64,000 nt of DNA from Amylibacter sp. (GCA_965206885.1 CBDBLJ010000002.1:18459-82458), one strand, 5' to 3'; counted from the stretch's first letter, positions 9,793 through 60,654 are shown. Notes: generated by a model not told the origin, from the sequence alone. Made by a program: numbers and translations.

Positions 9793-10059
9793 AGCTTACC
9801 CGATGGGTGCAAACCAATGCAAAGTCATCCAGACATCGTGTTTCCCACCAGAAACAGTCGCCCTACCAGAGTTTAAGGAAAAATCTGCGGCCTATCTCGA
9901 ACGGTTAGATGCCGCACTTGCAGAGGATGTTCCAGCGCTTGTTAATCAGCAACGAGGCATGACATGTCCAGATGCACGCGCAGGTCGTTTTCAACCAGAA
10001 TTAGAACCAAACGTAGCCGCTTTTGCTAAGTGGTATGCGCAACAATGGTCATAATCATA

Positions 10060-10926
10060 TTAACATTGGCGAAGCTTGGTTTTCTTAGCGTTTAAATAAA
10101 CTGGTTTATCAATCATTTTGCCATCGACAACTGTGACGCCATCCCCTGATTTTTCAGCACACTCAAAGGCAGCAATTATTTTTGCTGCTTTTATCAATTC
10201 ATCTTCACTTGGTTCAAATGTTTCGTTTAAAATCTCAACTTGGTTAGGATGAATACAAAACCCTCCAATGACACCACAATCTCTTGCCAAATTCGCACCT
10301 GTACGAAACCTATCGAGGTTCTTAAAATCAGAGATAGAGGCGAGAACACCAATAGCAGGTATTCCTAACGCGCAAGCTGATATAACAACCTGATGAAATG
10401 CAGTTCTGATTAATGCGGAATTCGGAGAACATCCAATTTCCGCAGCGAAATCCTCAGTTCCCAATGACAATGCACACAATCTAGGGTGAACAAAACCATC
10501 AACCTGATTTATAGCAATAAGCCCTGTACTGGACTCAATCTGGCAGATAATTATGGGGTTAGTACCGCCATTTTCTGCAATGCTATCAAGCGCCTCACCT
10601 GTAAGCCGAATATGATCAAACCCAAGCGTTTTCGGCAGAACAACAGCTTCACAGTTGTTTGGAAGCGCTTGTAAATCATCCTCAAACAATTCTGGTTCTG
10701 AATTCACGCGCACATAAAATGGTTTGTCGGCCTCACCCAATATTCTTGCTGCTAAATCAAGCTGCTGACGTGCGAATTGCTTAGAGCCGAACGCGACACC
10801 GTCCTCTAAATCCAGACAGACGGTGCCAGCATTACTAACGGCAGCTTTTTCAACCAGCTTTATCTTATCACAAGGTGTAAATAAAATTGACTTGGGAGGT
10901 ATCCAAAGACCACTCACTTGACCCAT
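10060..10926 (-). CDS. HpcH/HpaI aldolase-citrate lyase beta (CitE) family; candidate (S)-citramalyl-CoA lyase
   Basis: LFTP.D, CLDLEDGV, YVRVN, QIES, GTEDF and CIHPNQV motifs; last gene of the mct-meh-mcd operon. Confidence 0.8.
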   Translation of the reverse strand: MGQVSGLWIPPKSILFTPCDKIKLVEKAAVSNAGTVCLDLEDGVAFGSKQFARQQLDLAARILGEADKPFYVRVNSEPELFEDDLQALPNNCEAVVLPKTLGFDHIRLTGEALDSIAENGGTNPIIICQIESSTGLIAINQVDGFVHPRLCALSLGTEDFAAEIGCSPNSALIRTAFHQVVISACALGIPAIGVLASISDFKNLDRFRTGANLARDCGVIGGFCIHPNQVEILNETFEPSEDELIKAAKIIAAFECAEKSGDGVTVVDGKMIDKPVYLNAKKTKLRQC

Positions 10927-10936
10927 TGCTATATTC

Positions 10937-11539: not shown

Positions 11540-11552
11540 ATTTATGTCTCTC

Positions 11553-13193
11553 TCACTTGTTTTTTTCATTTGTTTTCTCGCGGGGCATCAGACCTCTGGC
11601 GATGATTTCAGCCTGCATTTCTGCGGCCCCTTCGAATATATTTAGGATACGCGCATCACATAAAACGCGTGAAATTGGTGTCTCAATCGCATACCCATTG
11701 CCGCCATGGATTTGCAACGCATTGTCGGCCGCAGACCAAGCAAGGCGCGCTGCAAGCAATTTTGCCATGCCTGCTTCAACATCACACCGCCCGCCTTGGT
11801 CTTTTTTTCTAGCCGCCATATAGGTGAGCTGCCGCACGCCCATAATTTCGACAACCATCCGCGCAAGTTTTCCGTAAATGCGTTCAAATTCGATTATTGG
11901 TTTGCCAAATTGCATACGGTTTTGCGCATATTCAAAGCCAAGTTCCAAAGCACTCGTTGCCGTGCCTAATGCGCGCGCCGCTGTTTGTATCCGCGCACTT
12001 TCAAAGGTTTGCATCAACTGTCGAAAGCCCTGTCCTTCTTCGCCCAAGACTGACGTTTCAGGTACCTTAAAATCATCAAAGGCAATATCGTATTCTTTCA
12101 TCCCACGATATCCGATGACGGGTATTTCACCACCCGTTATACCTTCATCAGGAAAGGGATCCGCATCGCTGCCACGTGTTTTTTCAGCTAAGAACATGGT
12201 TAAGCCCTGATGGCCTAATTCGTCTGGATTGGATCTGGCCAGAAGTGTCATAAGATCAGAGCGGCTGCCGTGTGTTATCCATGTTTTATTGCCGGTGACT
12301 ATATACTCATCACCATCGCGACGGGCGCGGGTTGATAGTTTTGCAAGATCAGACCCCGTGTTAGGCTCTGTGAAAACAGCAACTGGTAAAATATCCCCAG
12401 ATGCAATGCGCGGCAGATACTTTTGTTTTTGCTCTTCTGTGCCGCTTTTTTGAATAAGTTCGCCCGCAATTTCAGAGCGGGTTCCAAGACTGCCGACGCC
12501 CAGATATCCACTGGACAACTCTTCGGTCACGACACACATTGCAAGTTTTCCAAGCCCTGTGCCACCATATTCTTCTGGGATTGTCAGGCCGAAAACGCCG
12601 ATATCTGCCAGTTTTTGCACAACGGCGTCAGGTATAAGGTCATCCGCCATGTGCCATTGATGCGCATGCGGGATAATTTCTTTGCGGGCGAACTCATGGA
12701 ACTGTTCTGCGATCATAGACAGTGTTTCATCCTGACCGCGTTTACCAAAGGATTGGCGCTGAACACATTCATCTATGATTTCGTTTGAAAGCCTAGCGAT
12801 ACCCCATTTGTTAAAGGCAGCGATGCTTGGATCATCCGAAAAAGATTTGACCAAGTCTTGGGCATCCATATCTTGCGGGCGAATAATCTCATCCTGGCTC
12901 ATCGCAATGCCATGTTGCAATTGCGTGAGGTACTCTGAAAATAATGCCGCCGCGATCAACTGTTCTTGGCGCAGGAACTGGCCTTGCGCTGTCAGGGTCT
13001 CTGACCACTCCAAAGTTGCCGCCAGTGTTTCTGAATAGGCCGACATCCATGCAAACCCATGGCGTATGAATTGACTTTCGGGCGGCAGGGTTTTCGATAT
13101 CACTCTATTTCGAACACTCTCAACATATGCTCGCGTCGATAAAACGGCATCCCGCATCGAAGTTTGCAACCCTTTTAAATCAACAGGTTCCAT
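11553..13193 (-). CDS. mcd: (2S)-methylsuccinyl-CoA dehydrogenase-like acyl-CoA dehydrogenase
   Basis: About 550 aa with the long N-terminal extension (HGFAWMSAYSETL) characteristic of Mcd; FTEPNTGSDL, GNKTWIT, GYRGMKEY and IFEGAAE motifs. Confidence 0.75.
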   Translation of the reverse strand: MEPVDLKGLQTSMRDAVLSTRAYVESVRNRVISKTLPPESQFIRHGFAWMSAYSETLAATLEWSETLTAQGQFLRQEQLIAAALFSEYLTQLQHGIAMSQDEIIRPQDMDAQDLVKSFSDDPSIAAFNKWGIARLSNEIIDECVQRQSFGKRGQDETLSMIAEQFHEFARKEIIPHAHQWHMADDLIPDAVVQKLADIGVFGLTIPEEYGGTGLGKLAMCVVTEELSSGYLGVGSLGTRSEIAGELIQKSGTEEQKQKYLPRIASGDILPVAVFTEPNTGSDLAKLSTRARRDGDEYIVTGNKTWITHGSRSDLMTLLARSNPDELGHQGLTMFLAEKTRGSDADPFPDEGITGGEIPVIGYRGMKEYDIAFDDFKVPETSVLGEEGQGFRQLMQTFESARIQTAARALGTATSALELGFEYAQNRMQFGKPIIEFERIYGKLARMVVEIMGVRQLTYMAARKKDQGGRCDVEAGMAKLLAARLAWSAADNALQIHGGNGYAIETPISRVLCDARILNIFEGAAEMQAEIIARGLMPREKTNEKNK

Positions 13194-13210
13194 TTCTTGT
13201 ACTTCCTTAT

Positions 13211-14056
13211 TTAACATGATGCACTTGCCGACAATCCAATATGGCCATCAGGTGTTCTAACCACTAATTCTAAGCTGCCATCTGGTTGTTTACGCCCTTC
13301 CAACTGAGTCTTTTCTCCTAAAAAAACGGGTGCTTCGGCCCTAAATGAAAAGGCTGTAAGTGGTGCCTTTAGCCAAAGGGTTGCGTAATGTGCCATCATA
13401 ATTGCGTTCAGCGGTGCATGAACCACGCGTTCGGGATAACCCTCAACATGCACTGCATAATCTTTATCGTAATGAATACGGTGAGAATTGAATGTCAGTG
13501 CAGAAAACCGAAACAACAAAACTTCATCAGCTGTAAAGCTCGTAGTGAAATCTGTCTGGTCAGTTGACTTTGTCATATCTCGATCAGGTCGCGCTCCACC
13601 CTCTGATTGCAAATACACTATGGATTGTTTTTCTGTGATTAGAGTACCTTGATGATCCGACAAATCTATATCAACCGTGACTAGATATAGCGTTCCACTT
13701 TTCCCCTCTTTCTTTTCAATTTTGGAAATAGTCTGCTTCTTGCGAACTTCCGAAGTAATAGAGATTTGTCGATGACATTGAATTTTTGACCCTGCAAACA
13801 TCCGCCTTTTGGCAGGCAAGTCAGGCATCAGAACACCCAATTTAGCGTGACCATCAATGCCAATATCTTGTGGTACGACAGCATCAAGATGATACATCCA
13901 ATGCCAAAGAGGTGGTAAAATATGATCTGGACATGAAACGCCGATCGAATTGGCGAGCATCGCAACTTTTTCAAGGCCAATAATTGCTGTGGCTTCTGTT
14001 GTCCGACCTGTCCAATATTTAATCTGTTGTTCAATCGTCACTGTTATTTGCTCCAT
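13211..14056 (-). CDS. meh: Mesaconyl-C4-CoA hydratase / itaconyl-CoA hydratase-like double-hotdog enzyme (start 14056 or GTG 14041)
   Basis: LPPLWHW, RRMFAGS and LLFRFSALTFNSHRIHYD..Y...EGYP..VVHAPL motifs. Confidence 0.8.
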   Translation of the reverse strand: MEQITVTIEQQIKYWTGRTTEATAIIGLEKVAMLANSIGVSCPDHILPPLWHWMYHLDAVVPQDIGIDGHAKLGVLMPDLPAKRRMFAGSKIQCHRQISITSEVRKKQTISKIEKKEGKSGTLYLVTVDIDLSDHQGTLITEKQSIVYLQSEGGARPDRDMTKSTDQTDFTTSFTADEVLLFRFSALTFNSHRIHYDKDYAVHVEGYPERVVHAPLNAIMMAHYATLWLKAPLTAFSFRAEAPVFLGEKTQLEGRKQPDGSLELVVRTPDGHIGLSASASC

Positions 14057-15215
14057 TTCCCAATACATCTTTAAGAACTGCATCCGTATCAGCACCAACA
14101 TGGGATGCAGGTCGCACAGGCTGGCGTTTTTGATTTACAAAATTCAAGGGAGAACCTGATGCACACATACGTCCAATACCGTTTTGTTCAATCTCTTCAA
14201 ACATAGGGTTTTGCAGTGATGCACGGGGGTCACTCTGAACCATTTGTTGGAAACTTTGATAGGGTCCCCAAAGTATTTTGACGTCATCAAACAAATCTCC
14301 AATTTCCGCTAAAGTTTTATTTTGAGACCATTTACTCAGCTGGATAACAATCTCATCCCTCGCGTTATAACGCCCGGCATCACTGTATAGGTTAAGTCCC
14401 TTGCGTTTTTCAATTTCTGACATAGCATCTGCAGTGCCCGTGATTTCCACAAGCGATTTCCAATGTCGGTTTGTCAGAGCTACCAGCATAAGTTGGCGGC
14501 CATCTGAAGTGGGAAGATTGTGACCAAAAGCGCCGTATAAATGGTTGCCAATTGCAGGGCGATCCCGTTGCATAATTTCAGCTTCGCCCATGAAACCCAG
14601 ATTGGAAACCAACGAGTAAGCCACATCTGATAACGCAAGCGTCACATGCTGACCTTCTCCTGTTCTACTGCGATGTCGTTCCGCCGCAAGAATAGCCATT
14701 GCAAGCGTCATTCCCGCGATAGCATCCCACGCAGGGAACACACTATTTACAGGCTGATCCGCCGTAGCATTTCCCGTTGCAAACGGAATGCCCACGGCGC
14801 AATTGACTGTATAATCTACAGCTGCACTCCCATCATTGTGACCTGTCAAACTGACCATAATCAAATCGGGCCGCACTTTACGTAATTCTTCATAAGATAA
14901 CCATGATGGACCCGTTAAGTTGGTCAATAGAATGCCACCGTCTTCACATGAAGATGCTAATATTCTTCGGAAGATATCGCGCCCACCTTCTTGCTTCAAA
15001 TCAAGAGCAACGGATCGTTTACCTTTATTCAGCCCTGCCCAATACAGGCTTGTTCCATTTTTAGTTAGCGGCCATCGGTTATAATCCATCCCGCCACCTT
15101 CGGGGTCAACGCGGATAACTTCTGCACCTAATTGGGACAACGTCAGCCCAGCAAAAGGCGCTGCAACAAAGGCGGATAATTCTAATATCCGCATTCCTGA
15201 CAAAATATCATACAT
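14031..15215 (-). CDS. mct: Mesaconyl-CoA C1-C4 CoA transferase (2-methylfumaryl-CoA isomerase), family III
   Basis: SAFVAAP..G.TL.QLGA.VIR.DP.GGG.DY.RWP...SL.WAGLNKGKRS, VDYTVN and PAWD closely match the recalled Chloroflexus Mct sequence. Confidence 0.8.
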   Translation of the reverse strand: MYDILSGMRILELSAFVAAPFAGLTLSQLGAEVIRVDPEGGGMDYNRWPLTKNGTSLYWAGLNKGKRSVALDLKQEGGRDIFRRILASSCEDGGILLTNLTGPSWLSYEELRKVRPDLIMVSLTGHNDGSAAVDYTVNCAVGIPFATGNATADQPVNSVFPAWDAIAGMTLAMAILAAERHRSRTGEGQHVTLALSDVAYSLVSNLGFMGEAEIMQRDRPAIGNHLYGAFGHNLPTSDGRQLMLVALTNRHWKSLVEITGTADAMSEIEKRKGLNLYSDAGRYNARDEIVIQLSKWSQNKTLAEIGDLFDDVKILWGPYQSFQQMVQSDPRASLQNPMFEEIEQNGIGRMCASGSPLNFVNQKRQPVRPASHVGADTDAVLKDVLGNGANNSDD

Positions 15216-17343
15216 GACTTGCTTTCGGTGTCAGGTCGACGGTACGTGTCTCTCCAGATGTTTCATCGCCATGATAAATAGAGAACCGTCCTTGTTTCAC
15301 TTCATTCACATAACGTCGCAACATAAAACGCGTGGCATCATCAGCTATACGCTCAAATGGAATATCTTCGATTGCGCAGAAATACATTCCCTCAGGTGCC
15401 TTACCACGTGCTTTGCCCCTGTAGTAAATCATGAACTTTCCCGAAGCTTTGTCATCATATGTAGAAAGCATAAAATCGAGGCTAGCGTCTAACTTATCAT
15501 TCTTTAGGTGCTTGGATAATGCAGTTGGCGTTGCTTCAATCCCAAAAATCTGGCTATTTGGCAATGTAAGAGTAGACGCAGTTTCATCACCACAAAACAA
15601 TAACTTTCCATCATTTTCCAGAACGGCACCAACCACTGCACCTGCAGTGCCTTTCGCCGCATTCAACAGTGTTTTGCCACCTTCCAATGAAAAGAACCCA
15701 CCATTGACATAACCAAGTGGTTGCCCCACTTCATATGTGTATTCTTGTACTTTACCGATAAGAATAATGTGATCACCTGCATCGATCACTTTCTCTCTGG
15801 TACATTCAAATTGGGATAACGATCCTTCAATCATTGGCATCCCAATGCTTCCCGTATCCCACCCTACATGTTCGAATTTATCGGCACGGGGTGCAGCAAA
15901 AACCCCTGCTGTATCTTTTTGATCCTCTGACAGGATATTCACAGCAAATCCCTTACTCGTTTCGAAAATTTGCAAACTTTCAGAGAACTTTCCAATACAT
16001 ACCAGAACCAATGGTGGGTCCAAAGAGACTGATGTAAACGAATTTGCCGTAAAACCGCGTGGTGTTCCATCTTCTTCAACCGTTGTCACGACCGTAACTC
16101 CTGTCGCGAAAGTTCCAAATGCATTCCGTAAATCACGCTGTTCTTCTTTGGAATAATGACGAACTTTGGAAGGCTTAAGATATGTGTCATTATCGCCGCC
16201 AAGTCGCGGCGGCGTCTGGGCAATCGGTGTCGGAGCATTGCTGAAATGTACGGGGTTGGCAGCAACGGTCCAAGGTTTTGCGCCCTCAACTGGATGTGCC
16301 ACTTCTGTTAACATACCACGGGCCAACACCTGTGGATCCGCAAAGATGTCTTGAACAGAATTTAATGGGCCAAAGGGCACCACGCCGCCCAACAAATCTG
16401 TAAGTTCTGCTTTGGAAAATTGCTTCGTCCAATCAGCCACAATCGCGTTCAGCTCTTTTGAATTGGCACTGCGAGCACCAATTGATGTAAATCGCGTATC
16501 GTCACGCAAATCTTGCATATTCATGACGCTCGTCAATGTCCGCCAAAAAGAGTCATCTACGATGCCAAGCGCCACTTGCCCATCTTTTGCAGGGAAAAGG
16601 CCAAATAATGCAAGTAGTGGATGACCGTTCCCTTGAGGACCAGGAATCGTGCCATCAAAATCATATTGGTAAATCGCACGCTCGCACATGCTCATCATTG
16701 CATCATACATTGCGACATCAACGAATTGTCCGCGACCTGTTGAATTAACCTGCCGCAAGGCGGCCATAATTCCAAAGGACATCATCATGCCCGTAAAAAT
16801 ATCCCCAATCCCTGGCCCTACTTTAGTAGGGGAATTCGCATCGGGCCCTGTTAACCCCATAATGCCACCCATTGCCTGGGCAACCACATCGTAGGATGGC
16901 CAGCTTTGGTAAGGGCTTTCCCCCGACCGTGGATCACCAAACCCACGGATCGCCGCATAAACCAATCTGGGGTTAATCTCTGCCAGAGTTTCATAGGACA
17001 AGCCAAGACGCTCCATGACACCCGGTCGAAAATTCTCAACAACGACATCCGCTGTTTCACAAAGCTCTAAAAAATTCTGTTTGCCTTCTTTGGATTTCAA
17101 ATCCAATTGGACACTTTTTTTACTTCGGTTCAGGCTTACAAAATAACCAGCCCATTCTTTATTCGGATCGTCATCACGAAAAGGTCCATTTGAACGGCTT
17201 GTATCGCCATTCTTACTTTCAATTTTAATAACCTCAGCACCATGGTCCGCCAGCATCATCGTGCAATACGGCCCAGACAACATACGACTTAAATCCAGCA
17301 CACGTAGGCCAGATAAAACCCCTTGTGTACGTGTATCATTCAT
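15208..17343 (-). CDS. Fusion of a CaiB/BaiF family III CoA-transferase, a flavin reductase and a C-terminal domain (about 711 aa)
   Basis: N-terminal LDLSRMLSGPYCTMMLADHGAEVIKIE...YDVVAQA; after about residue 400, RDLRNAFGTFATGVTVVT...GFTANSFTSVSLDPPLV...AGDHIILIG; no stop codon between the domains. Confidence 0.88.
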   Translation of the reverse strand: MNDTRTQGVLSGLRVLDLSRMLSGPYCTMMLADHGAEVIKIESKNGDTSRSNGPFRDDDPNKEWAGYFVSLNRSKKSVQLDLKSKEGKQNFLELCETADVVVENFRPGVMERLGLSYETLAEINPRLVYAAIRGFGDPRSGESPYQSWPSYDVVAQAMGGIMGLTGPDANSPTKVGPGIGDIFTGMMMSFGIMAALRQVNSTGRGQFVDVAMYDAMMSMCERAIYQYDFDGTIPGPQGNGHPLLALFGLFPAKDGQVALGIVDDSFWRTLTSVMNMQDLRDDTRFTSIGARSANSKELNAIVADWTKQFSKAELTDLLGGVVPFGPLNSVQDIFADPQVLARGMLTEVAHPVEGAKPWTVAANPVHFSNAPTPIAQTPPRLGGDNDTYLKPSKVRHYSKEEQRDLRNAFGTFATGVTVVTTVEEDGTPRGFTANSFTSVSLDPPLVLVCIGKFSESLQIFETSKGFAVNILSEDQKDTAGVFAAPRADKFEHVGWDTGSIGMPMIEGSLSQFECTREKVIDAGDHIILIGKVQEYTYEVGQPLGYVNGGFFSLEGGKTLLNAAKGTAGAVVGAVLENDGKLLFCGDETASTLTLPNSQIFGIEATPTALSKHLKNDKLDASLDFMLSTYDDKASGKFMIYYRGKARGKAPEGMYFCAIEDIPFERIADDATRFMLRRYVNEVKQGRFSIYHGDETSGETRTVDLTPKASHV

Positions 17344-18151
17344 CAGGCAAACCTTTTCCAAAAACTCTATTCAAGAATGTTAATATTGGAGCATTGACGG
17401 CATCAGGATTTTCCATAAGTGCCATATGCCGCAAACCTTTAAGAATCACAGCTTCAGCACTTTCAACTTCATCGGCTATAGCGTGTGTCATTTCAGGGCC
17501 ATTTCCATAATCTTCGTCTCCAGTCAAAACCAATGTCGGACAAGATATTGGTGGATTGGGGCATATTATTTCATCAACCCCTGCCGCCAAAACACGGTAA
17601 ACTGGAGGATAATTCTCAGGGTTATTTGACATAACCCATCCCCGAACCTGCTCCATTACATCAGGATGATCAGCTCTGTAGACATCCGTAAACCAACGCA
17701 CTAATGCGGCTTCCACTGTAGCAGAAGGTCCCTCTTTCGCTGCCAGTTCCACACGTTTGAGAATTGCCGATTGAGCATCATCACTCCGTTTATGTGGCGA
17801 GTTTAGGATCATAAGAGCAGTGGCCCGTGCAGGCGCATCTTGAGCAAAGCGCCGTGCAATCATCCCTCCTAACGAAAATCCAATAATAGCAGCATGATCA
17901 ATTTTACAATGATCCATTAATGTCTGCAATTGTGTCGAAAAAACTGATAGTGATGGTGTTGAATTTGGGGCTACAGCCTCGCCATGCCAATATAAATCAT
18001 ACGCAATAATATGATAGTGTTCCGCTAGCGCAGACACCTGTGATTTCCAAACATCTCGAACCAGTCCCAACCCGTGTATCAATACAACTGTTGGATTACC
18101 CTTATGACCAAATTGCTCAAATGCAGTACCGTCATTTGTCCACTCTAACAT
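17336..18151 (-). CDS. Alpha/beta-fold hydrolase (PcaD/RutD/TgnD-like)
   Basis: LIHGLG, nucleophile elbow GFSLGG, GDED acid region and C-terminal RHM histidine. Confidence 0.85.
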   Translation of the reverse strand: MLEWTNDGTAFEQFGHKGNPTVVLIHGLGLVRDVWKSQVSALAEHYHIIAYDLYWHGEAVAPNSTPSLSVFSTQLQTLMDHCKIDHAAIIGFSLGGMIARRFAQDAPARATALMILNSPHKRSDDAQSAILKRVELAAKEGPSATVEAALVRWFTDVYRADHPDVMEQVRGWVMSNNPENYPPVYRVLAAGVDEIICPNPPISCPTLVLTGDEDYGNGPEMTHAIADEVESAEAVILKGLRHMALMENPDAVNAPILTFLNRVFGKGLPDE

Positions 18152-18154
18152 GCC

Positions 18155-18553
18155 TTAGTCTTTCTTAATTGGGTTATATGCTACGACCTCTACTTCCACA
18201 CGAACATCAACTAATAGCTCACTGACAACAGCGGATCGTGCTGGTGGGTCTACGGGAAAATATTCACCATATACTTGATTAAACCCTGGAAAATCAGAGC
18301 GATCCCGCAGCCAAACCATTGCTTTAACGACACCGTCCATAGAACATTCGGCTAGCTTTAAAGTGTCGTGAATGGCGTCCAAGACCACTTTTGTTTGAGC
18401 TTGAATATCCCCTGACGTCATTGGCTCTCCATCTTGCATAGGGATCTGCCCCGTAAGATATAGGAAATCACCTGCCTGAATGGCGCGCGACAAGGATAAT
18501 GTTCGATTGTTGATCACGACAGGATCACCAATCACTTTTTTCTTTGGTGGCAT
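18155..18553 (-). CDS. RidA/YjgF family enamine-imine deaminase
   Basis: LYLTGQIP, FNQVYGEYF..DPPARSAV with the catalytic Arg present, VEVEVVA. Confidence 0.88.
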   Translation of the reverse strand: MPPKKKVIGDPVVINNRTLSLSRAIQAGDFLYLTGQIPMQDGEPMTSGDIQAQTKVVLDAIHDTLKLAECSMDGVVKAMVWLRDRSDFPGFNQVYGEYFPVDPPARSAVVSELLVDVRVEVEVVAYNPIKKD

Positions 18554-18608
18554 TAATTTTTCTCCCTATTTGATAGGCTATTTAATCTTTGAATTAACAA
18601 CAGAGGTA

Positions 18609-18631
18609 TTTTCGTCATCGTATGTCGAAAA
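18609..18631. promoter_or_regulatory. Candidate operator TTTTCGTCA-N5-TGTCGAAAA upstream of ridA
   Basis: Inverted repeat whose half-site recurs upstream of the SBP gene, cdhR and the ALDH operon. Confidence 0.5.
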
Positions 18632-18793
18632 ATTACACCTCATGATATTTAGTAATACATTTTTTAATTACTGGTCAAAGATGTTGTGCAAATTTCATGC
18701 ATACTGGCATCGTCATAATCCTAAATCTTATCCAAGAACTCTTGTAATTTATCACTCTCTTCTGGCCACATATTTGCGGTTTCCTTCGTACTA

Positions 18794-19674
18794 TAGCCTG
18801 ACGACTCAACTTTGATTCCACTTTTGATTGGAGAATATCTGTTCAGCGGTTTCTCCTGTTTTTCGCCTATGGGCTTTAGCTTGCGCCCATGTATGTTCAA
18901 TTGGGTTATAATCGGGGCTATATGCAGGTAGATATTCAAGGATATGTTCTGCATCCGTGATGATTTTTATTGTGTCGCTACGTCTGTGAAAGCTGGCTCT
19001 GTCCATTACAAGTACTGATCCTTTGGAAAGGACTGGAATGAGCTGATCTTTGAGCCAAAGATTGAAGATATCCGCGTCAACATTACATGCTGTCAGGCCA
19101 ACAGTTAACAAGGTGCCAGCCAAAAGCGCTCCAATAACATTGATCCTCCCTTTCGCCTGCCAATCGTGAACACCCACACAGCGTTTTCCGCGCGGGGCAT
19201 AACCATGGGTGCGTGGCATGTCATGCGCAAAACCACTTTCATCAATATATACAATGGCTTTACCTGCAGCCTCATGGGCCGCTAACCTCTCTTGAAAGGA
19301 CTGCCTGTCGTCGTCGTTTGCCTTGGGGTGCCGCATGGCTTTTTTTATATGTGATCTTCAATTTCTTAAGGGCTTGCCAAATTGCCTTTGGGCAAACATC
19401 AAAACGGTCAGCACGTTCATACTGATAAGCATCAGGATATTTTTCAACATCCTGTGCTAGCTTTTTAAGATCTATTTTACGTATCTTTTTGCGTTCATGC
19501 TGTTTGGGTTCAACCCGTTTAGACCATCGCTTCACCGAGGCTACACCCACGGAGAAACGCTCTGCGACCCGAGCAAAACTCAAGCACTCTTGTTCTTTTA
19601 TCCGCAAAACATGGCGGCGAAATTTAATTGGATGTGTCATGTAACCATAGTATCATAATATTGTCGCTAGGCTA
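18794..19674 (-). mobile_element. IS630-family insertion sequence, 881 bp, intergenic
   Basis: IRs TAGCCTGACGAC / TAGCCTAGCGAC; TA duplication (18792..18793 and 19675..19676) at a CTAG target. Confidence 0.9.
18806..19640 (-). CDS. IS630 transposase encoded in two overlapping frames joined at an A7 run
   Basis: HTH-bearing orfA 19272..19640; orfB with YIDESGF, VMDRASFH and YSPDYNPIE; A7 run at 19340..19346. Confidence 0.85.
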
Positions 19675-19700: not shown

Positions 19701-21806
19701 TTAAACACACTCAGAACCGTCAATTTGGATCAAAGCATCAACGGCAACACAAGATTTTTCATATACAAACAAGGGGTTGATTTCGACTTCAACGATCTGT
19801 TCTACATTATCTAGGACAAATTCAGTTAGCTTTAAAAGGGTCTTACTAAGTATATCCAAATCAACTTTTTTGCTTCCGCGAAAACCGCTAAGAAGTTTGG
19901 AAACTTTTAGCGCGCTTAAACTGCGTCGTATCGTTTCGGAACTAGTTGGCAATAGTATCGTGTTCGCGTCACCAACCAACTCAACTAAAATACCACCACT
20001 GCCCAAAGTCATTGCATAGCCAAATTGTGGATCACGTCGAATACCAACAATCAATTCAGCCAACGGAGCTTTAGCCATACTTTCAATCAAAAACTGATCC
20101 GTGACAGCATCGGCATCATATTTTGCAACAGCATTTGTCATTTCGCTAACAGCCGCAACAATATCAGGCAAAGTCGACAAATTAAGCGTGACAGCGCCAG
20201 CTTCAGTCTTATGCACCAGCTTTGGGCCCATCATTTTAAGAGCAATCGGGAATTCAATTTCATGAGCGACGGTTGGCACTTGATCTACCTGAACACAACA
20301 CCCCTTAGGAACTAACACTCCAGCTTTTTCCAAAATACTTTTGCCCGAAACTTCATCTAATACAACAACGTTTTCGGTCTGAATTGGCGCGACAATAGCG
20401 TCCAATGAATTGGCCAAAATATGTACCCTTGCTTGTTCCCAGTCCGTTGCTGCGGAAATAGCATTTAATGCCTCATGAAGGCCTTGCATGGGGGCGACAC
20501 CAATAGAGATCAAATAATCGCGCGTTTGCTCGTCAATATTTTCAGGCAATGTCGAACATATAGCTGCTGGAATACCGACAGCAGCAGCGCCATCCGCAAA
20601 AGCTTTGGCATCATTTTGATAATAAACTTTAGACTCGTCCAACCCTGGAGCTGGATAATCCTGTACCAGAATGGCAGCGTCGCTTTTTGTACCCTCAAGG
20701 GCGCTCAGAAAAACTGGGGCCGTCAATTCTGGTTGTCCCCATATCGGTGTTGTATAATCTAACGGGTTTGAAACCGTGGCGATCGACGGCAACAGATTGG
20801 TCAAAACAGACACTTCCTTTATCGGGATTTCTGGAAAATCCAACCCAAGGATTTCACCTTGATCAGCCAACATCGTCGCCCCACCTCCTGAGCAGGTAAA
20901 ACCAGTCAATTTTTTGCCTTTCGGCGCCCCTGCAACACATAAATATTTAAGTGTTTCAAGAAACTGTGACGGGTTTGTTACTTTGATAACTCCAGTCCGT
21001 TCAAACAATGCATCATAAAGTTCGTTTGCTCCTGACAAAGAGCCCGTATGGCTAACCGTCAGGGAACTGCCAATTGCTGAACTTCCCGTTTTTAAAGCAA
21101 CGATTGGAACATTCAAAGACAATGATTTTAATGCAGCCTGCTCGAATTTGCGAATATCCTGCAATCCTTCAATGTGAACGCCTATTGCTCTCACTGCGGG
21201 GTTTTCACATAATAAATCAATGAAATCAGCCTGACCCAAAACTGATTGGTTCCCAGCTGAAATCATATGTGTCAAAGGCAAAGAGCGTTGGCTCATCGTG
21301 ATATCAGATGAAAACATCCCACTTTGCGTAATGATAGCGGCCCCATAACCAGGTGCCCCACCACCATGAGCAAAGGGCCAAAGCGCGGAATTATCCAAAT
21401 AATTAATCATGCCGTAGCAATTTGGCCCGATTAAGGCCATGTCGCCCACAGCATTTAACAATTCGGCTTCAGCCGCAATTCCATCTGCGCCAGCCTCTTT
21501 AAAGCCCGCAGCATAGCAAACAACACCTCCAGCACCCATTTCAGCAAGGGCACGCACCGTTTCAATTGCAGCATGTGCAGGCACCGCAAGGAAAACTGCA
21601 TCTGGAGCTTCAGGCAAATCATCAACGGAAGAAACACAAGGAAAACCAGCTAAGGTACTGCGCTTAGGGTTTACGGCCCAATACTGCCCCGTGTAGCCTC
21701 GTCGTTTAGCCTCGCCAATTGCGATAACAGCGTCCGTTCCCCCAATAAAAGCAATGTGGCGCGGGTTCATCAAGCGGTTAAAGTTTTTCCGTAATTCAGG
21801 TATCAT
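19701..21806 (-). CDS. ADP-forming acyl-CoA ligase, fused alpha/beta; candidate gamma-butyrobetaine-CoA ligase (BcoA/B-like)
   Basis: IGPNCYG, TQSG, SAGNQ, VSHTGSL, NPLDY and ATP-grasp HKTEAGAV, EVEINPL motifs; ATGA overlap with the upstream dehydrogenase. Confidence 0.82.
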   Translation of the reverse strand: MIPELRKNFNRLMNPRHIAFIGGTDAVIAIGEAKRRGYTGQYWAVNPKRSTLAGFPCVSSVDDLPEAPDAVFLAVPAHAAIETVRALAEMGAGGVVCYAAGFKEAGADGIAAEAELLNAVGDMALIGPNCYGMINYLDNSALWPFAHGGGAPGYGAAIITQSGMFSSDITMSQRSLPLTHMISAGNQSVLGQADFIDLLCENPAVRAIGVHIEGLQDIRKFEQAALKSLSLNVPIVALKTGSSAIGSSLTVSHTGSLSGANELYDALFERTGVIKVTNPSQFLETLKYLCVAGAPKGKKLTGFTCSGGGATMLADQGEILGLDFPEIPIKEVSVLTNLLPSIATVSNPLDYTTPIWGQPELTAPVFLSALEGTKSDAAILVQDYPAPGLDESKVYYQNDAKAFADGAAAVGIPAAICSTLPENIDEQTRDYLISIGVAPMQGLHEALNAISAATDWEQARVHILANSLDAIVAPIQTENVVVLDEVSGKSILEKAGVLVPKGCCVQVDQVPTVAHEIEFPIALKMMGPKLVHKTEAGAVTLNLSTLPDIVAAVSEMTNAVAKYDADAVTDQFLIESMAKAPLAELIVGIRRDPQFGYAMTLGSGGILVELVGDANTILLPTSSETIRRSLSALKVSKLLSGFRGSKKVDLDILSKTLLKLTEFVLDNVEQIVEVEINPLFVYEKSCVAVDALIQIDGSECV

Positions 21807-22963
21807 GCGCCTAAGGGTCTTAAAATTGATCGTGTTATGATGTGGCGTTGAATTTCCGATGTTCCATCCCAAATACGCTCAATCCGACTGTCGCGCCACA
21901 TGCGTTGAATAGGCATCTCTTCCATCAAGCCCATACCCCCATAAATTTGTACGGTATCATCTGCAACCTTGTGCAGCATTTCAGAACAAAACACCTTAAC
22001 CATCGCTGCATCTTGATCTTCTAAGGTGCCCGCATCTGCACGGCGGACGGCATCAAATACCAACAAATCTGCTGCGCGCAGGCCGATTGTCATATCTGCT
22101 AAACGAAATCCTGTCGCTTGGAAGCTGCCAATAGGTTTACCGAACTGTTTGCGGTTTGCGGCCCAATCTGTGGCCAATTCCAACATGCGCTCTGCCTTGC
22201 CACAACATGTGGCCCCGACCCAAATCCGGCCCATGCCAAGCCATTGACCCGCCAGTTCAAAACCGCGACCTTCTTCGCCCAGAACTTGGCCAGCCCCTAG
22301 ACGTACATCTTCGAAGATCAACTCATAGGTTTTATATCCGCGATTGCTAACGCATTTATTACCTTCGCGAAAAGTCACACCTGGCATATCGCGGTCCACC
22401 AAAAACGCCGTTATGCGTTTGCGAGGGCCGCGCTTGGTTTCATCCATTCCTGTGACAGCAAACACAATGGCGAAATCAGCCATCGTCGGTGCTGAGATAA
22501 AATGCTTGGATCCGTTCAAAATCCAATCATCGCCATCGCGTTTTGCGTTGCTGCGCATACCCATCGCATCGGAGCCTGCTTCGGGTTCAGTCAAACCGAA
22601 CAACTCACGCTTTTCACCCATCACACAGGGGTTTAGATATTTCTCGATCTGATCCCCTTCGCAAGCCATCAACAATTCTGTTGGCCGCGCAATCCAAGAG
22701 TGTAATGCGTGGCTGGTACGACCGAATTCACGTTCAATCACCGCCATTTGCGTATGGTTCAGCCCCCCACCGCCCACTGCTTCAGGCATGTTAGCCGCAT
22801 AAAGCCCTAACTCTTTTGCCTTGGCTTCAATATCACGCCCGATTTCATCAGGCACTTCACCAAGGCTATCCACCATTTCTTCATGGGGGATAACTTCCTT
22901 TTCAAAGAAATTGCGCACGGTATCGCGCAAAAGCTCATCTTCATGGGACATAGGTATGGTCAC
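21803..22963 (-). CDS. Acyl-CoA dehydrogenase; candidate gamma-butyrobetainyl-CoA dehydrogenase (BcoC-like)
   Basis: LTEPEAGSD, NGSKHFIS, RKQFGKPI and RIWDGTSEIQR motifs; context of carnitine genes. Confidence 0.85.
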   Translation of the reverse strand: MTIPMSHEDELLRDTVRNFFEKEVIPHEEMVDSLGEVPDEIGRDIEAKAKELGLYAANMPEAVGGGGLNHTQMAVIEREFGRTSHALHSWIARPTELLMACEGDQIEKYLNPCVMGEKRELFGLTEPEAGSDAMGMRSNAKRDGDDWILNGSKHFISAPTMADFAIVFAVTGMDETKRGPRKRITAFLVDRDMPGVTFREGNKCVSNRGYKTYELIFEDVRLGAGQVLGEEGRGFELAGQWLGMGRIWVGATCCGKAERMLELATDWAANRKQFGKPIGSFQATGFRLADMTIGLRAADLLVFDAVRRADAGTLEDQDAAMVKVFCSEMLHKVADDTVQIYGGMGLMEEMPIQRMWRDSRIERIWDGTSEIQRHIITRSILRPLGA

Positions 22964-23002
22964 GATCTTCTCCTAATTTATAATATTGAGAACTGAGGGG
23001 GC

Positions 23003-23899
23003 TTATCCGATTGGATCTGCACCACGCAGTTTCAATTTGTTGCGCGCTTCTTGCGGCGTAAGAGCTCTACCACCCATGCGCTCGATAATTTCGACGACCC
23101 TCGTAACCAGCTGCCCATTAGTTGCAAGCACACCTCGATCCAAATAGATGTTATCCTCAAGGCCAACGCGAACATTACCACCCATTGCTACAGCAGCGGC
23201 TGCCATAGGCATTTGCATGCGAGAAATACCAAAGCTCGCCCAGCTGGCATCATATGGAATATGATCTTTCATGGCTTTCATGGTATCGATGCTTTGATCC
23301 GCACCCCATGGAATACCCAGACAAATCTGAAACATCGGTGGATCTGCGATTAAACCTTCTGCAATCATTTGCCGTGCAAACCGGATATGTCCCAACTCAA
23401 ACACTTCCAATTCTGGTTTCACACCCCATGATCGTGTCAGTTCAGCCATTTTGCGCAATGTAGGGGGCGTTGAAATATAAATTTCATCCCCATCGCCAAA
23501 ATTCAGTGCTCCACAATCAAGCGAGCAAATTTCTGGCAAGCACTCTTTGATATGTAACAGGCGTTCTTCTGGCCCAATCATGTCAGTGCCAGGACCTGGC
23601 ATTGCGGGATTATCTGCACTTGGTACCCAATCCCCGCCCATACCCGCAGTCAGGTTAATCACGACATCCGTATCACTATCCCGAACGCGGTCCACGACTT
23701 CTTTGAACAATGCAGGATCCCTTGAACCTTTGCCTGTTTCGGGATCGCGCACATGAAGGTGCGCGATTGCTGCACCTGCTTTGGCGGCCTCGATTGCAGC
23801 ATCCGCAATCTCTTTGGGGGTCACGGGAACATGCGAACTGCGCCCAGTAGTATCTCCAGCACCTGTTACTGCACAGGTCACAACGACATCATAATTCAT
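23003..23899 (-). CDS. cdhC: BKACE-family 3-dehydrocarnitine cleavage enzyme
   Basis: TCAVTGAG...[43 protein letters not shown]; lies in a cluster with lcdH. Confidence 0.8.
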
Positions 23900-24574
23900 C
23901 TAATAGTTCTCCCTATTTTTTAATCACTTTGAAAGAGCTACATTTTTGGAGTATAGATTTATCGTCAATTTAATATTTTTTTGACGTATATTTGTACTTA
24001 ATCATATTATTTTAAACGCCATTAACCTTACTATAAACTCGATTATCCTAAGCCTAATTCAACTAGAGAATGTATCCCTTTCCTATCTAAAACCTGTATT
24101 TTTATGAAGTTAAGATGAAAACGCTACTTTGCATTTTGCAAAATAATAGTATTTATCAACTGGTAGATTGGCAGATCTATATGTTATTACTGCCAATCTA
24201 AATAGCTTTAAGGAACAGTTGTCCTACAATTTATGAGAACCACCACCGTTCAGAACTTTTAGCACCGTCCATGGCCCAATTACTCGCGATTACATCTGGG
24301 TGGGAAACCCGTTTATTCAAGCCATGTACAAGATTTGCGAACCCCCATACCACAGCACCACCGTCTTCGTTGTGAAGTTTCTGGCATTCCCAGTACATCG
24401 CTTTGCGCTTTTCGTAATCCAGCTCGCCGCGTGCTGCGATTACAAGCTCATTGAAGCGGTCAGCTGCTGGTGTGCCTTTCCAAGCAGTGTCGTTCCATGA
24501 GGAACCCTCAACACAACAGGCTGAGAACATCCAGTCATTAGTTGGACGGCCTGCCCATGTGCTTGTAACCCAAC

Positions 24575-25790
24575 CACGGCAATCGCTTGAAGATTTCAGC
24601 CTTCACCTTTGATTGCGGCTTTTAGGTAACTATCATCCCAAGCGGCTGTTTTTCTTCGTATTTTCAGACTGGCCGTATCGCCGACTTGCTTGAAGATGTT
24701 GATTGCACTATGTCGCATCAGAGCCATGTTGGCGGGGCCATTTTGGGTCCGCAAGCGCATCAGGTCGTCGTGAAACACCACATCCATCACCCAGTGCAGG
24801 CGATTTTCCACACCCCAATGGGCGCGTGTGGCGCGCAGGAATTGCTTGGCTGAGAGCGGTGCGGAGGACAGATAGTAACGTCGCGAGAAACTGGTTTTAC
24901 CTTTGTGTTTGACCTCGGCCTCGATCATGCCGATAGCGGCGAGGCCTGGAAACCTTGGTGCGCCAGGCTCAGACCGATCAGGGCGCAGCCACTCTACATC
25001 ATGACTGACATAGGCACGACGGATTTCTATCCGCCCATGATCGGCATCGGTGGTTTCATGGGTTTCCAAACCACTGGTCTGGTCGAAATAGAGCCTCACC
25101 TCTTCATGCAGTGATTTTTGGTTGCCTTTAAGCGCCAAAAGATAGTCTGCGCCTTGTGCGAGGATCGCCGCAGCAATACCGTGTTGGCAGCCCATTGCAT
25201 CAATCGTGACCAGCGCGCCTTTCAACTCAAGCCGCGCCAGTAGTCGAGGTATCGCGCTGATTTCATTCTCTTTCTCGTCACAGGATTCTTGCCCCAAGAC
25301 CAATCTCTGACGCGTTGCCCAAGCTGAAACCAGATGCAGGGCGCGGCCATCCTCACCATGCGCACGGCGTGACGACTTGCCGTCAATTGCCACGATCTCA
25401 TCATCGCCATCGCGCAAGGCCGCAACCCAGGAAACGAAGCATTCGCTAAACAGGTCAGCGGGAATCGCGTTCATCACATCATTGAGCGTGTCATGAGATG
25501 GGATCCCATCTTTGAAGGGTAGAAACCCACGCAAGAATTTCAATTTTCGGTCCGCCCATCGGGCTATTTCGGCAAAATCATCAGCACCAGCCATAACACC
25601 GCAGAGCACAATCAGTAGGATTTCGGGTAGTGGATAAACAGTTTTCCAGCTCTGGCGTGGGTCTTCAATGGCAGAAAAATGGTCGAGGATATTGGCTGAG
25701 ATCATGGGAGGCTCCGAATGTCATTTCAATGACCAGAGAATCACATATCACCCGCTAAGGGAATCCCCACTTTTTCAAGCGATTGCCGTG
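24575..25790 (-). mobile_element. ISAs1-family insertion sequence, 1216 bp, copy 1
   Basis: Perfect 17-bp IR CACGGCAATCGCTTGAA; 10-bp TSD GTAACCCAAC at 24565..24574 and 25791..25800. Confidence 0.95.
24596..25705 (-). CDS. ISAs1-family transposase (369 aa)
   Basis: IEDPR...YPL.EIL, VAIDGKSSR, VTIDAMGCQ, LKGNQ and HWGVENRLHW motifs. Confidence 0.95.
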   Translation of the reverse strand: MISANILDHFSAIEDPRQSWKTVYPLPEILLIVLCGVMAGADDFAEIARWADRKLKFLRGFLPFKDGIPSHDTLNDVMNAIPADLFSECFVSWVAALRDGDDEIVAIDGKSSRRAHGEDGRALHLVSAWATRQRLVLGQESCDEKENEISAIPRLLARLELKGALVTIDAMGCQHGIAAAILAQGADYLLALKGNQKSLHEEVRLYFDQTSGLETHETTDADHGRIEIRRAYVSHDVEWLRPDRSEPGAPRFPGLAAIGMIEAEVKHKGKTSFSRRYYLSSAPLSAKQFLRATRAHWGVENRLHWVMDVVFHDDLMRLRTQNGPANMALMRHSAINIFKQVGDTASLKIRRKTAAWDDSYLKAAIKGEG

Positions 25791-30581: not shown

Positions 30582-31619
30582 TTATTTAAATGCTGGCATC
30601 ACTTCGTTACAGAACAATTCCAATGATCGTTTCTGCGAAGCCATATCCAAACCAAAGCTTGAATAGAAAATAAATTCATCTACGCCCAAAGCTTCATATC
30701 GTTTGAGTTTTTGGATAACTGTATCAGGAGAGCCAAACATAAGATTTTCTTCCAGCATTGCTGGATCGTATTGCTCACGGCCTTCCAAATCGGACAGTGC
30801 AATTTCCTTGGGGAAGCCATCTTTCACATCGCCAAGATTGCGATAAAGATTTTCGAATTGTCCTAAAACACGCGTGATTGCGTTGATAGCATTGTCGCGC
30901 CCAGCATCATTTTCGTAAACGCAGGCGTGACGCATCATTGCAAAAATTGGATTGGCTTTTCCGCCCGATTTGACGATCGCCTCATCCAAGGGCTTTTTGT
31001 AAAGCTCAGCTTCCTCAAATGGACGGGTGAACGGCCACGACATAATGTTGCAATCATTCTCGATAGCATAATCAAACGTAATCGGAGAACGCGCTGCCGC
31101 CCATAACCGCGGATAAGGTTTTTGAATTGGTTTTGGTACAGACGTAGATGTCGGGAAATTCCAATATTCACCATCATGGGCATAATCGCCCTTCCAAAGC
31201 GCCTTTAGCGCTGGCAGCATCTCTTGCATATAACGCCAACCATCTGATTGTTTTACGCCCGGCATCATACGGTCAAATTCGCGCTGATAAGCACCTGAAC
31301 CAATGCCAAACTCCAATCGCCCGCCGCTGATCAAATCCAAGAATGCAGCTTCACCAGCTAGATTGATTGGGTGCCAGTACGCCGCTGTAGCTACAGCCGT
31401 CCCAAGACGAATAGTATCAGTTTCCCCTGCCCACCAAGTTAAAATTTGAAACGGATTGGGCGCAATTGTCATCTCTAGGGCATGGTGTTCTGCTGCCCAA
31501 ACAATATTGAAGCCACCGCGCTCCGCTAGTTGCACCATCTCGATGGTGTGGCGTTGCAGTTCATTCATATCAACGCTTGCATCCAAACGCTCTAGGTTAA
31601 TTGCTAGTTGAAATTTCAT
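30582..31619 (-). CDS. Luciferase-like (LLM) flavin-dependent monooxygenase, TgnB/HomA-like
   Basis: AEHH...TIAPNPF, RLGT.......WHPI.LAGEAA..D.IS.GRLE.GI..GAY..E..RM.PG resembles recalled trigonelline monooxygenase TgnB. Confidence 0.8.
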   Translation of the reverse strand: MKFQLAINLERLDASVDMNELQRHTIEMVQLAERGGFNIVWAAEHHALEMTIAPNPFQILTWWAGETDTIRLGTAVATAAYWHPINLAGEAAFLDLISGGRLEFGIGSGAYQREFDRMMPGVKQSDGWRYMQEMLPALKALWKGDYAHDGEYWNFPTSTSVPKPIQKPYPRLWAAARSPITFDYAIENDCNIMSWPFTRPFEEAELYKKPLDEAIVKSGGKANPIFAMMRHACVYENDAGRDNAINAITRVLGQFENLYRNLGDVKDGFPKEIALSDLEGREQYDPAMLEENLMFGSPDTVIQKLKRYEALGVDEFIFYSSFGLDMASQKRSLELFCNEVMPAFK

Positions 31620-34483: not shown

Positions 34484-34549
34484 GGTTAAGCATTCTTGGT
34501 TGGTTATCGAATAGGCTCACGCCCAAGCAAAAGTTGGCACATTGTTGTG

Positions 34550-36502: not shown

Positions 36503-36531
36503 ACGTAATCTCCCAGTTTAACCAATCGCAA

Positions 36532-37485: not shown

Positions 37486-37530
37486 ATTGTTCCTCCCTAT
37501 AATGCTGTTCATTCAGTCTTCGTAATTCTG

Positions 37531-60584: not shown

Positions 60585-60654
60585 AGGCAATGTTTTATGG
60601 GTATTTCTGACGTTTTGGGATTCCCATGAGGCCCTTGATTTGGTAAGGAGTGGC

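Follow-up and report, generated by a model that had tools for sequence, protein, structure and literature searches.

Why should a coenzyme A (CoA)-transferase and a flavin reductase be encoded by a single open reading frame (ORF)? The question is raised by a 64,000-nucleotide stretch of Amylibacter sp. DNA (GCA_965206885.1, CBDBLJ010000002.1:18459-82458; hereafter the window), whose minus strand carries at 15208..17343 an ORF of 711 amino acids that encodes, in order, a family III CoA-transferase, an in-frame linker, a flavin reductase, and a tail of ~150 residues. A preliminary description of the sequence had taken this fusion as the strongest evidence that a ring-cleavage module and a C5 module encoded nearby form one pathway. 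We find the fusion to be a real, maintained, and conserved three-part enzyme. The reading of its function that we prefer, and rate at somewhat better than even, is that the reductase unit of a genuine tri-domain protein serves a luciferase-like (LLM) flavin-dependent oxygenase, while the CoA-transferase acts on a dicarboxylate of the same pathway.

The ATG at 17343 is favoured as the start of the ORF, on the N-termini of 46 homologues, over an alternative TTG at 17361 that lies six codons upstream and would give a protein of 717 residues; the stop codon occupies 15208-15210. The start overlaps the stop of the preceding hydrolase gene by 8 nucleotides, and the stop overlaps the start of the following gene by another 8, and the fusion ORF is thus part of a translationally coupled operon. 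The interdomain linker (residues 386-403; 16135..16188, minus strand) is the least conserved part of the protein (0.39), its length and sequence varying across 47 aligned homologues with the reading frame intact in all of them. Over residues 381-410, quoted in the preliminary description as LGGDNDTYLKPSKVRHYSKEEQRDLRNAFG, there is no stop codon and no in-frame ATG, GTG, or TTG. Assemblies from four runs, representing three samples and two studies, were then compared with the window. Contigs from runs X1, X2, and X3 (word depths of 93x, 15x, and 91x, respectively) and from the fourth run, which belongs to the other study, showed neither differences nor gaps over positions 14800-17800, and one X4 contig (16064-16241) crosses the fusion junction; a sequencing error at the junction is thus excluded. 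Several marine metagenomes contain near-identical pieces of the fusion region. Locus L011, from a relative, has the same 711-residue ORF at 89% protein and 84% DNA identity, and the ratio of nonsynonymous to synonymous substitution (dN/dS) against it is 0.071 over the whole ORF; by domain (dS 0.86), the values are 0.037 (CoA-transferase), 0.059 (reductase), and 0.142 (tail).

The architecture is also widespread. In a large protein database, more than 120 clusters of proteins 692-720 residues long contain both Pfam domains at 55-62% identity, and the fear that all relatives might prove to be two separate genes was unfounded. These clusters derive mostly from marine Rhodobacterales; named carriers are Ruegeria pomeroyi (orthologue AAV95956.1, probably SPO2711, in a cluster that runs from about SPO2703 to SPO2712), Roseovarius, Sulfitobacter, Shimia, Pseudorhodobacter, Rhodobiaceae, Kiloniellaceae, and a metagenome-assembled genome (MAG) of Rhizobiales. 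The same architecture is found in public databases as UniProt Q5LPY5 and in many NCBI entries, under labels such as 'CoA transferase', 'CaiB-like', or even 'Cag11'. The last, in full 'cag pathogenicity island protein Cag11', is attached in NCBI/UniRef to the fusions P0035, P0056, P0079, and P0104 and, given their domain content, is evidently a propagated misannotation. A scan of GTDB genomes with a single fusion protein returned just two matches, both spurious, and megablast of the cluster against plasmids returned none.

The CoA-transferase domain (residues 10-385; 16189..17316, minus strand) matches the whole of PF02515 (CoA_transf_3; profile positions 1-366 of 366, E 1.7e-124). It had been described as a complete CaiB-like domain; complete it is, as a member of the CaiB/BaiF/Frc-type family III, but its kinship with CaiB is distant, the match to NF002914 reaching 145 bits against a cut-off of 413, and that to the CaiB structure (PDB 1xk6) 110 bits. 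The top NCBIfam match was succinyl-CoA:mesaconate CoA-transferase (NF041294), whose 700-bit equivalog cut-off lies well above the 426.6 bits obtained, and the domain is thus not a member of that family. Sequence matches in the PDB were to 4ed9, YfdE, SUGCT, and Frc, and the best fold match was to SUGCT (E 1e-28); Frc mutant and intermediate structures were among the PDB entries returned in the fold comparison. The domain shares its full-length fold, a Gly-rich loop, and the catalytic Asp with the dicarboxylate enzymes of family III (NF041294, SUGCT 9br6/9br7, YfdE 4hl6, and Frc), from which it differs in its score (427 versus 700 bits) and in being fused to a reductase. The predicted nucleophile is Asp181 (codon 16801..16803, minus strand) in the motif GPGIGD181IFTG. 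All 47 aligned family members have this Asp, and it aligns with the corresponding Asp of YfdE (SLADLCGG), SUGCT (AMTDLATG), and 4ed9. The catalytic role of this residue is established for Asp169 of Frc, and its YfdE counterpart is Asp173. Asp152 had also been considered as the nucleophile and was discarded after alignment with YfdE and SUGCT pointed to Asp181. In the monomer model, the segments that interlock in known dimers (residues 141-179 and 212-246) had low predicted local-distance-difference-test scores (pLDDT).

The closest unfused relatives of this domain, at 47-57% identity, are encoded in PrpD-MaoC-ACAD-MaoC-CoA-transferase-lyase operons (ACAD, acyl-CoA dehydrogenase), which adjoin dicarboxylate transporters; this setting in dicarboxylate-CoA operons points to an ancestry in branched-dicarboxylate metabolism. 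No stand-alone CoA-transferase of the tight subfamily itself was seen with more than 57% identity to that of the window. These affinities, together with the interleaving of gene sets in the two operons described below, the C5 module of the window, and an alternative decarboxylase-like gene that occupies the same slot elsewhere, argue that the CoA-transferase thioesterifies a dicarboxylic intermediate of the pathway in which the oxygenase acts. The preliminary description had proposed such an activating role; the best named matches are indeed to mesaconate CoA-transferase, SUGCT, and YfdE, and the role is plausible, at a little below an even chance.

The second half of the protein begins with an HpaC/TgnA-type NAD(P)H:flavin reductase domain (residues 404-555; 15679..16134, minus strand), which was correctly recognized from the start as complete: PF01613 (Flavin_Reduct) matches residues 410-553 (E 7e-41), the GDH motif G523-D524-H525 (15769-15777) and likewise the TxNS...S motif are invariant in the reductase half of the family, and its PDB relatives are 3rh7, 3nfw, 5zc2, and 1rz0. 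The further C-terminal domain that had also been noticed (residues 556-711, ~155 residues; 15211..15678, minus strand) has no Pfam match. However, 3rh7, the 'putative oxidoreductase' SMa0793 of Sinorhizobium meliloti 1021, aligns with residues 11-309 of the C-terminal half (E 3.7e-64), and so with both of its domains; the fusion is thus best described as a two-domain reductase that already existed as a unit and to which a CoA-transferase has been joined. Modelled alone with AlphaFold, the tail gave a pLDDT of 86.5 and a predicted TM score (pTM) of 0.80, and the model matched Nudix folds, including 3cng (E 1e-8), MTH1, and the C-terminal domain of 3rh7 (TM 0.66). The Nudix box (GX5EX7REUXEEXGU) was found in none of the 47 family members, even with a relaxed pattern. 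The tail is thus predicted to be a Nudix fold devoid of catalysis; it shares with the Nudix hydrolases the fold only and does not belong to them. It nevertheless has invariant residues and is kept in stand-alone, hydrolase-fused, and CoA-transferase-fused reductases alike. One 563-residue protein, P0137, joins CoA-transferase and reductase without the Nudix-like tail and has GDN in place of GDH, and is perhaps degenerate or truncated.

An extra C-terminal domain is also found in the C1 reductase of p-hydroxyphenylacetate 3-hydroxylase from Acinetobacter baumannii (PDB 5zc2, NF045919), where it reportedly regulates flavin reduction. The likeness to C1 is limited to the HpaC-type reductase domain (profile 6-157 of 309), the C-terminal folds being unrelated. 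SMa0793 combines the same reductase with a Nudix-fold domain and its operon type shares with that of the fusion an upstream α/β hydrolase, with genes for an LLM oxygenase, an aldehyde dehydrogenase (ALDH), and an AA_synth protein nearby, a gene set that is complete in the window. SMa0793 and its Leisingera, Acidiphilium, and Pelagibius homologues differ in standing alone at ~310-325 residues without a CoA-transferase; the SMa0793-type proteins are 41-44% identical to the reductase of the window and those of Pelagibius type 56-62%. The canonical clusters in which SMa0793-type reductases occur have a second ALDH and lack enoyl-CoA hydratase (ECH), 3-hydroxyacyl dehydrogenase (3HCDH), and BKACE.

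What would such a reductase serve? In five of the fused-type loci seen with intact flanks (L001, L006, L008/L009, L012, and L019), an LLM gene lies ~3 kb from the fusion in a divergent operon. The full layout reads transporter-BKACE, GlxA, and 3HCDH-ECH-LLM-ALDH, divergent from RidA-hydrolase-fusion-AA_synth; the transporter is of the ATP-binding cassette (ABC) type and may or may not be accompanied by ACAD and a nucleoside diphosphate (NDP)-forming acyl-CoA synthetase. It is found in R. pomeroyi, P. marina, a Rhodobiaceae MAG, and metagenomes and is the ancestral arrangement of the cluster. The window has every one of these genes, with products 55-94% identical to their counterparts. L014 has the divergent LLM layout too, AA_synth alone being missing. 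In the unfused canonical clusters of Leisingera, Acidiphilium, and S. meliloti, the order is AA_synth-hydrolase-reductase-LLM-ALDH, with the reductase directly before LLM; the S. meliloti locus has an additional ABC transporter and the second ALDH. No nif or nod flank that would link the S. meliloti locus to the classical trc region was found in a 33-kb stretch. In the window, the LLM gene (30582..31619, minus strand) is ~13 kb from the fusion, as the preliminary description had it, and its product is 65-75% identical to the LLM protein adjoining the fusion operon in relatives. From homology and synteny, the reductase and Nudix unit very probably supplies reduced flavin to this oxygenase, much as had been proposed.

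The nearest known chemistry is that of trigonelline. The Tgn pathway reportedly goes back to the tgn cluster of Acinetobacter baylyi ADP1 described by Perchat et al. in 2018. The ADP1 TgnA/TgnB system comprises a flavin reductase and an LLM-type oxygenase, followed by an ALDH, an α/β hydrolase, and a conserved hypothetical protein, and this gene set and its order match the unfused clusters related to that of the window. In trigonelline degradation, TgnA is the source of reduced flavin and TgnB the ring-opening enzyme (PMC13236597 and PMC8269262, both citing Perchat et al.). By analogy, a nitrogen compound resembling trigonelline is the probable substrate of the fused-type cluster; the term 'ring cleavage' would apply to it solely through resemblance to Tgn. 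The fused type is nonetheless a distinct subfamily by sequence, as identity to the canonical type (Leisingera, Acidiphilium, and S. meliloti) is no more than 35-38% for its LLM and 29-31% for its hydrolase. It has one ALDH per locus, no second ALDH corresponding to succinate-semialdehyde dehydrogenase (TgnE) being present in the fused-type loci, and carries as extras the CoA-dependent CaiD-like hydratase, the carnitine-dehydrogenase-like enzyme, BKACE, and ACAD. The homarine (hom) operon was considered as another model and ruled out by its different enzyme set (FAD protein, HomB, peptidase, and ALDH).

In the scheme we prefer, the reductase and Nudix unit, acting like TgnA or SMa0793, would reduce free flavin for the LLM oxygenase, and this two-component system would open or oxidise a trigonelline-like N-heterocyclic or quaternary-amine osmolyte. 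ALDH, the α/β hydrolase, RidA, and AA_synth would process the product as in Tgn-type clusters, and the CoA-transferase, with Asp181 as its nucleophile, would load a dicarboxylic intermediate of this pathway with CoA taken from, e.g., succinyl-CoA. The Tgn intermediate 2-((N-methylformamido)methylene)succinate already has the skeleton of a branched C5 dicarboxylate. Instead of being decarboxylated to succinate semialdehyde, the carbon would pass into CoA-dependent steps: in all lineages those of the hydratase (CaiD-like) and of the carnitine-dehydrogenase-like enzyme, in the lineage of the window those of a methylsuccinyl/mesaconyl/itaconyl-CoA module, and in Rhodobacterales possibly those of the ethylmalonyl-CoA pathway. 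The fusion itself would fix co-expression and is mechanistically not required.

Several observations weigh against this reading. The CoA-transferase domain falls under every equivalog cut-off in NCBIfam, and the AlphaFold2 model of the full-length protein (pTM 0.48) gives no confident packing between domains. Two loci, L013 and L021, have the fusion operon without an LLM gene within 10 kb. The low identities of LLM and hydrolase to their canonical counterparts mean that the substrate may not be trigonelline and that the chemistry may differ. The conserved partners (CaiD-like, carnitine-dehydrogenase-like, BKACE, ACAD, and NDP-forming synthetase) look carnitine-like, and a CaiB-like role for the transferase fits them equally. 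Transcription was seen in one metatranscriptome, as two 151-nucleotide contigs within the CoA-transferase part that do not span the junction, and no biochemical or genetic test of any gene of the fused-type cluster was found in the literature.

A more ambitious proposal, which we can put forward only tentatively and think rather unlikely, is that the cluster encodes an undescribed CoA-dependent branch of pyridinium/betaine catabolism that is widespread in marine Roseobacters. It would embrace ALDH-LLM-ECH-3HCDH, RidA-hydrolase-fusion-AA_synth, BKACE, ACAD, and the ABC transporter. The ring-opened product would be thioesterified by the fused CoA-transferase and would then follow one of two routes, either through formyl- or hydroxymethyl-succinyl-CoA to itaconyl/mesaconyl-CoA, or through carnitine-like N-methylformamido intermediates to acetoacetate and a sarcosine derivative, while the non-catalytic Nudix domain would tune flavin reduction.

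The carnitine-like look of the partners can also be taken at face value, the cluster then being a 'betaine island' of two independent routes, one of the Tgn-like oxygenase and one for carnitine/γ-butyrobetaine, with a CaiB-like transferase that would have been fused by mere adjacency; it would exchange CoA between γ-butyrobetaine or crotonobetaine on one side and, on the other, carnitinyl-CoA or a related hydroxyacyl-CoA. The CaiD-like ECH of the window (29759-30562, minus strand) has crotonobetainyl-CoA hydratase as its best match (310 bits), and the 3HCDH of the same operon (28815-29756, minus strand) L-carnitine dehydrogenase (311 bits); with BKACE, ACAD, and the synthetase, all steps from γ-butyrobetaine through carnitine to betainyl-CoA would be covered save the CoA hand-over. 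The regulator is GlxA/CdhR-like, and the reductase fuses readily to whichever gene is upstream. In R. pomeroyi, SPO2708 bears the annotation-based label 'carnitine dehydratase' and is assigned to carnitine catabolism (PMC10041152), and the transporter SPO2699-2702, which adjoins the cluster, is induced by Micromonas exudate, among whose components carnitine has been inferred (PMC9870897). Against this, all the carnitine-like enzymes score below their equivalog cut-offs, the transferase stands far from CaiB and near the dicarboxylate transferases, in whose operons its nearest unfused relatives also lie, and each of the two operons mixes genes of both sets, an arrangement conserved across families that would not be expected of independent pathways. 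We consider the proposal unlikely.

Less probable again is a regulated machine, in which the Nudix-like domain or the CoA-transferase would sense an NDP-linked ligand (acyl-CoA, NADH, or flavin adenine dinucleotide) or the substrate and gate the oxidation of NAD(P)H, so that flavin is reduced only when usable, in the manner of the autoinhibitory C-terminal domain of the C1 reductase. A non-catalytic tail with invariant residues that is under purifying selection (dN/dS 0.14), and that is retained whatever the fusion state of the reductase, would suit such a device, as would the lack of any close stand-alone relative of the CoA-transferase. Family III CoA-transferases and HpaC-type reductases are both dimers, and a fused dimer is thus sterically plausible. 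However, the reductase of sister lineages works without a CoA-transferase, the linker is variable and poorly conserved, and the modelled arrangement of the domains is not confident. An artefact or a private, recent, functionless stop-loss, suggested by neighbouring genes of the operon that overlap by 4-8 nucleotides and could be fused by one small change, and by the stand-alone genes that are the closest relatives of the reductase half, is refuted by the identical sequence obtained from independent runs, by the strong purifying selection on all domains of the ORF shared with L011, and by the invariant catalytic motifs of both halves across an architecture of so wide a distribution, and retains a negligible probability.

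The two halves of the fusion give different pictures of its history. The CoA-transferase halves of all fusions form one tight group (63-78% identity), and clustering at 50% collapses the family to a single full-length representative. The reductase half of the window, by contrast, is 56-62% identical to stand-alone reductases of ~320 residues, e.g., from Pelagibius sp., and just 42-49% identical to the reductases of other fusions. In a neighbour-joining tree of the reductases (299 columns, 300 bootstraps), the window lineage grouped with the stand-alone Pelagibius-type proteins (100% bootstrap), the Rhizobiales fusion with other stand-alone reductases (97%), and the Rhodobacterales fusions with yet another (100%), whereas monophyly of all CoA-transferase-fused reductases received 0% support. 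As fused and unfused forms thus interleave at 97-100% bootstrap, the physical link must be labile. The ratio of divergence between the halves is similar throughout (e.g., 67% versus 47% for two members of the main clade), so that a single ancient fusion that later split several times and a number of independent fusions account for the data equally well.

A second type of fusion occurs in many canonical-type clusters, where an α/β hydrolase takes the place of the CoA-transferase at the N-terminus. These α/β hydrolase::flavin reductase::Nudix-like proteins of 440-540 residues (P0304, P0306, P0309, P0313, P0326, P0353, P0374, and others) form a clade of their own with 100% bootstrap, and in them the same reductase and Nudix unit is again joined to the upstream gene of its operon. 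The JGI name '(E)-2-((N-methylformamido)methylene)succinate hydrolase' is attached to some of the hydrolase fusions and some of the CoA-transferase fusions. The reductase thus readily fuses to its upstream neighbour and works without one as well, and the fusion probably arose by read-through between overlapping, translationally coupled genes. In Pelagibius sp. Alg239-R121 (L022, 9569-9949), a gene for a 126-residue protein of the carboxymuconolactone decarboxylase-like (CMD) family lies between hydrolase and reductase, in the slot of the CoA-transferase, which fits two alternative fates of one intermediate.

In the sense of a Rosetta-stone link, the case is a proper one, as the reductase stands alone in many genomes and is fused in more than 120 clusters. 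The claim that the fusion is the strongest evidence of a single pathway was, however, overstated: a reductase that also occurs alone or joined to a hydrolase, has been fused more than once to differing upstream neighbours, and has its states interleaved in the tree cautions against taking any one fusion as strong proof that a pathway is one. As a clue to the pathway it is useful, but it is neither unique nor essential, and its parts are of known kinds.

No paper describing the fusion protein or its cluster was found in searches of the literature on the fusion, Q5LPY5, the SPO locus tags, and supplements; they yielded only the mentions of the transporter SPO2699-2702 and of SPO2708 given above. 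Trigonelline and related N-methylated osmolytes are abundant metabolites of phytoplankton, and their consumption by marine bacteria is known only in part; the homarine pathway was reportedly solved only in 2026. The fusion marks a conserved, unstudied cluster of R. pomeroyi DSS-3 and of many genomes and metagenomes of the Roseobacter group. Should the CoA-dependent reading be true, the cluster would provide a second fate for ring-opened pyridinium carbon, tied to C5-dicarboxylate or ethylmalonyl-CoA metabolism; with an arrayed transposon library of R. pomeroyi available, the matter is open to direct test.

The genes that follow the fusion in the window (all on the minus strand) are predicted to encode genuine C5-dicarboxylyl-CoA enzymes. 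The first (14031..15215), whose start overlaps the fusion stop, is mesaconyl-CoA C1-C4 CoA-transferase-like, its product matching 2-methylfumaryl-CoA isomerase (PDB 8apq) at 411 bits and TIGR04253 at 438 bits, under the cut-off of 725. Next are a double hot-dog MaoC hydratase resembling itaconyl-CoA hydratase (13211..14101; PDB 8khg, E 2e-42) and a 554-residue ACAD with an N-terminal extension (11553..13217), which is (2S)-methylsuccinyl-CoA dehydrogenase-like (PDB 6es9, 601 bits over residues 44-544; the entry for (2S)-methylsuccinyl-CoA dehydrogenase is 8ciw). These three lineage-specific genes separate the fusion from AA_synth (PF06684; 10937..11569), whose product is 72-79% identical to that of the post-fusion gene in L001, L006, L008, L012, and L013, and beyond it lies a gene for an HpcH/CitE-type CoA-ester lyase, citramalyl-CoA lyase-like (10060..10926), with CitE and RipC/Ccl matches below cut-offs. 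The C5 module of the preliminary description is therefore real as to its enzymes, but the window lineage (L010 and L011) is the only one in which it adjoins the fusion; no orthologues of the C5 genes lie next to the fusion in other fused-type loci, where the conserved CoA-pathway partners are the CaiD-like hydratase, the carnitine-dehydrogenase-like enzyme, and BKACE.

On the other side of the fusion, still on the minus strand, are the α/β-fold hydrolase (PcaD/TgnD-like; 17336..18151), which immediately precedes the fusion in all loci examined, and the RidA-family protein (18155..18553), the first gene of the operon and upstream of the hydrolase in most fused-type loci. BKACE, ACAD, and the NDP-forming acyl-CoA synthetase (19701..23899, minus strand) are recurrent in the fused-type cluster and are also found in L013 and L022. 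The ALDH gene (31636..33117, minus strand), first of the ALDH-LLM-ECH-3HCDH operon, encodes a product with 76-87% identity across fused-type loci. This operon and the RidA operon have the same orientation and are 13 kb apart, with IS630 and IS4 copies between them, a gap that is the product of rearrangement associated with insertion sequence (IS) elements. The window has at least eight such elements, including ISL3, IS5-like, IS630, two IS4-like, IS200, IS5, and IS66 (2905-4137, 8641-9765, 18806-19640, 24574-25790, 38739-39173, 40065-40901, 42294-43510, and 59860-62340). The IS630-family transposase (two ORFs; 18806..19640, minus strand) lies between the RidA operon and the remaining cluster genes, and the IS4-like element within the cluster (24574..25790) has an identical inverted copy at 42294-43510. 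This richness in IS elements accounts for the scrambled state of the cluster and, with the absence of housekeeping genes from the window, suggests a plasmid, a chromid, or an IS-expanded genome. The G+C content of the IS66 region is 57%, against ~46% elsewhere in the window.

The fusion-bearing Logan contig of X1 and X3 is 9050 nucleotides long (window positions of about 9769-18818) and is bounded by the IS5-like element and by IS630, which makes the block from the lyase to RidA a repeat-flanked unit. Compared with L001, L008, and L014, identities are 90-94% for ECH, 91-92% for BKACE, and 84-87% for 3HCDH and ALDH, but just 59-62% for the fusion and 59-61% for the hydrolase, despite the low G+C content of the window. 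As the former are so much closer to their Rhodobacterales counterparts than the latter, the two operons may have different histories, one of them possibly having been acquired horizontally.

In L007 (6569-9991), a metagenomic genome represented by an ENA contig of 681 kb, the partner genes have decayed, ALDH being split by IS elements and the hydrolase into two ORFs, with the fusion ORF intact. Two genes of the window that lie beside IS elements look truncated: that for the alpha subunit of a Rieske ring-hydroxylating oxygenase (7611-8498; 295 residues, with a partial match to the catalytic domain) and that for an SBP_bac_5 binding protein (25775-27073; 432 residues). Directly upstream of the ALDH operon are genes for a flavin mononucleotide-dependent α-hydroxyacid dehydrogenase and for the tricarboxylate-transporter proteins TctB, TctA, and TctC (33365-37512); a similar FMN_dh gene near the fusion in L007 encodes a product 64% identical to that of the window.

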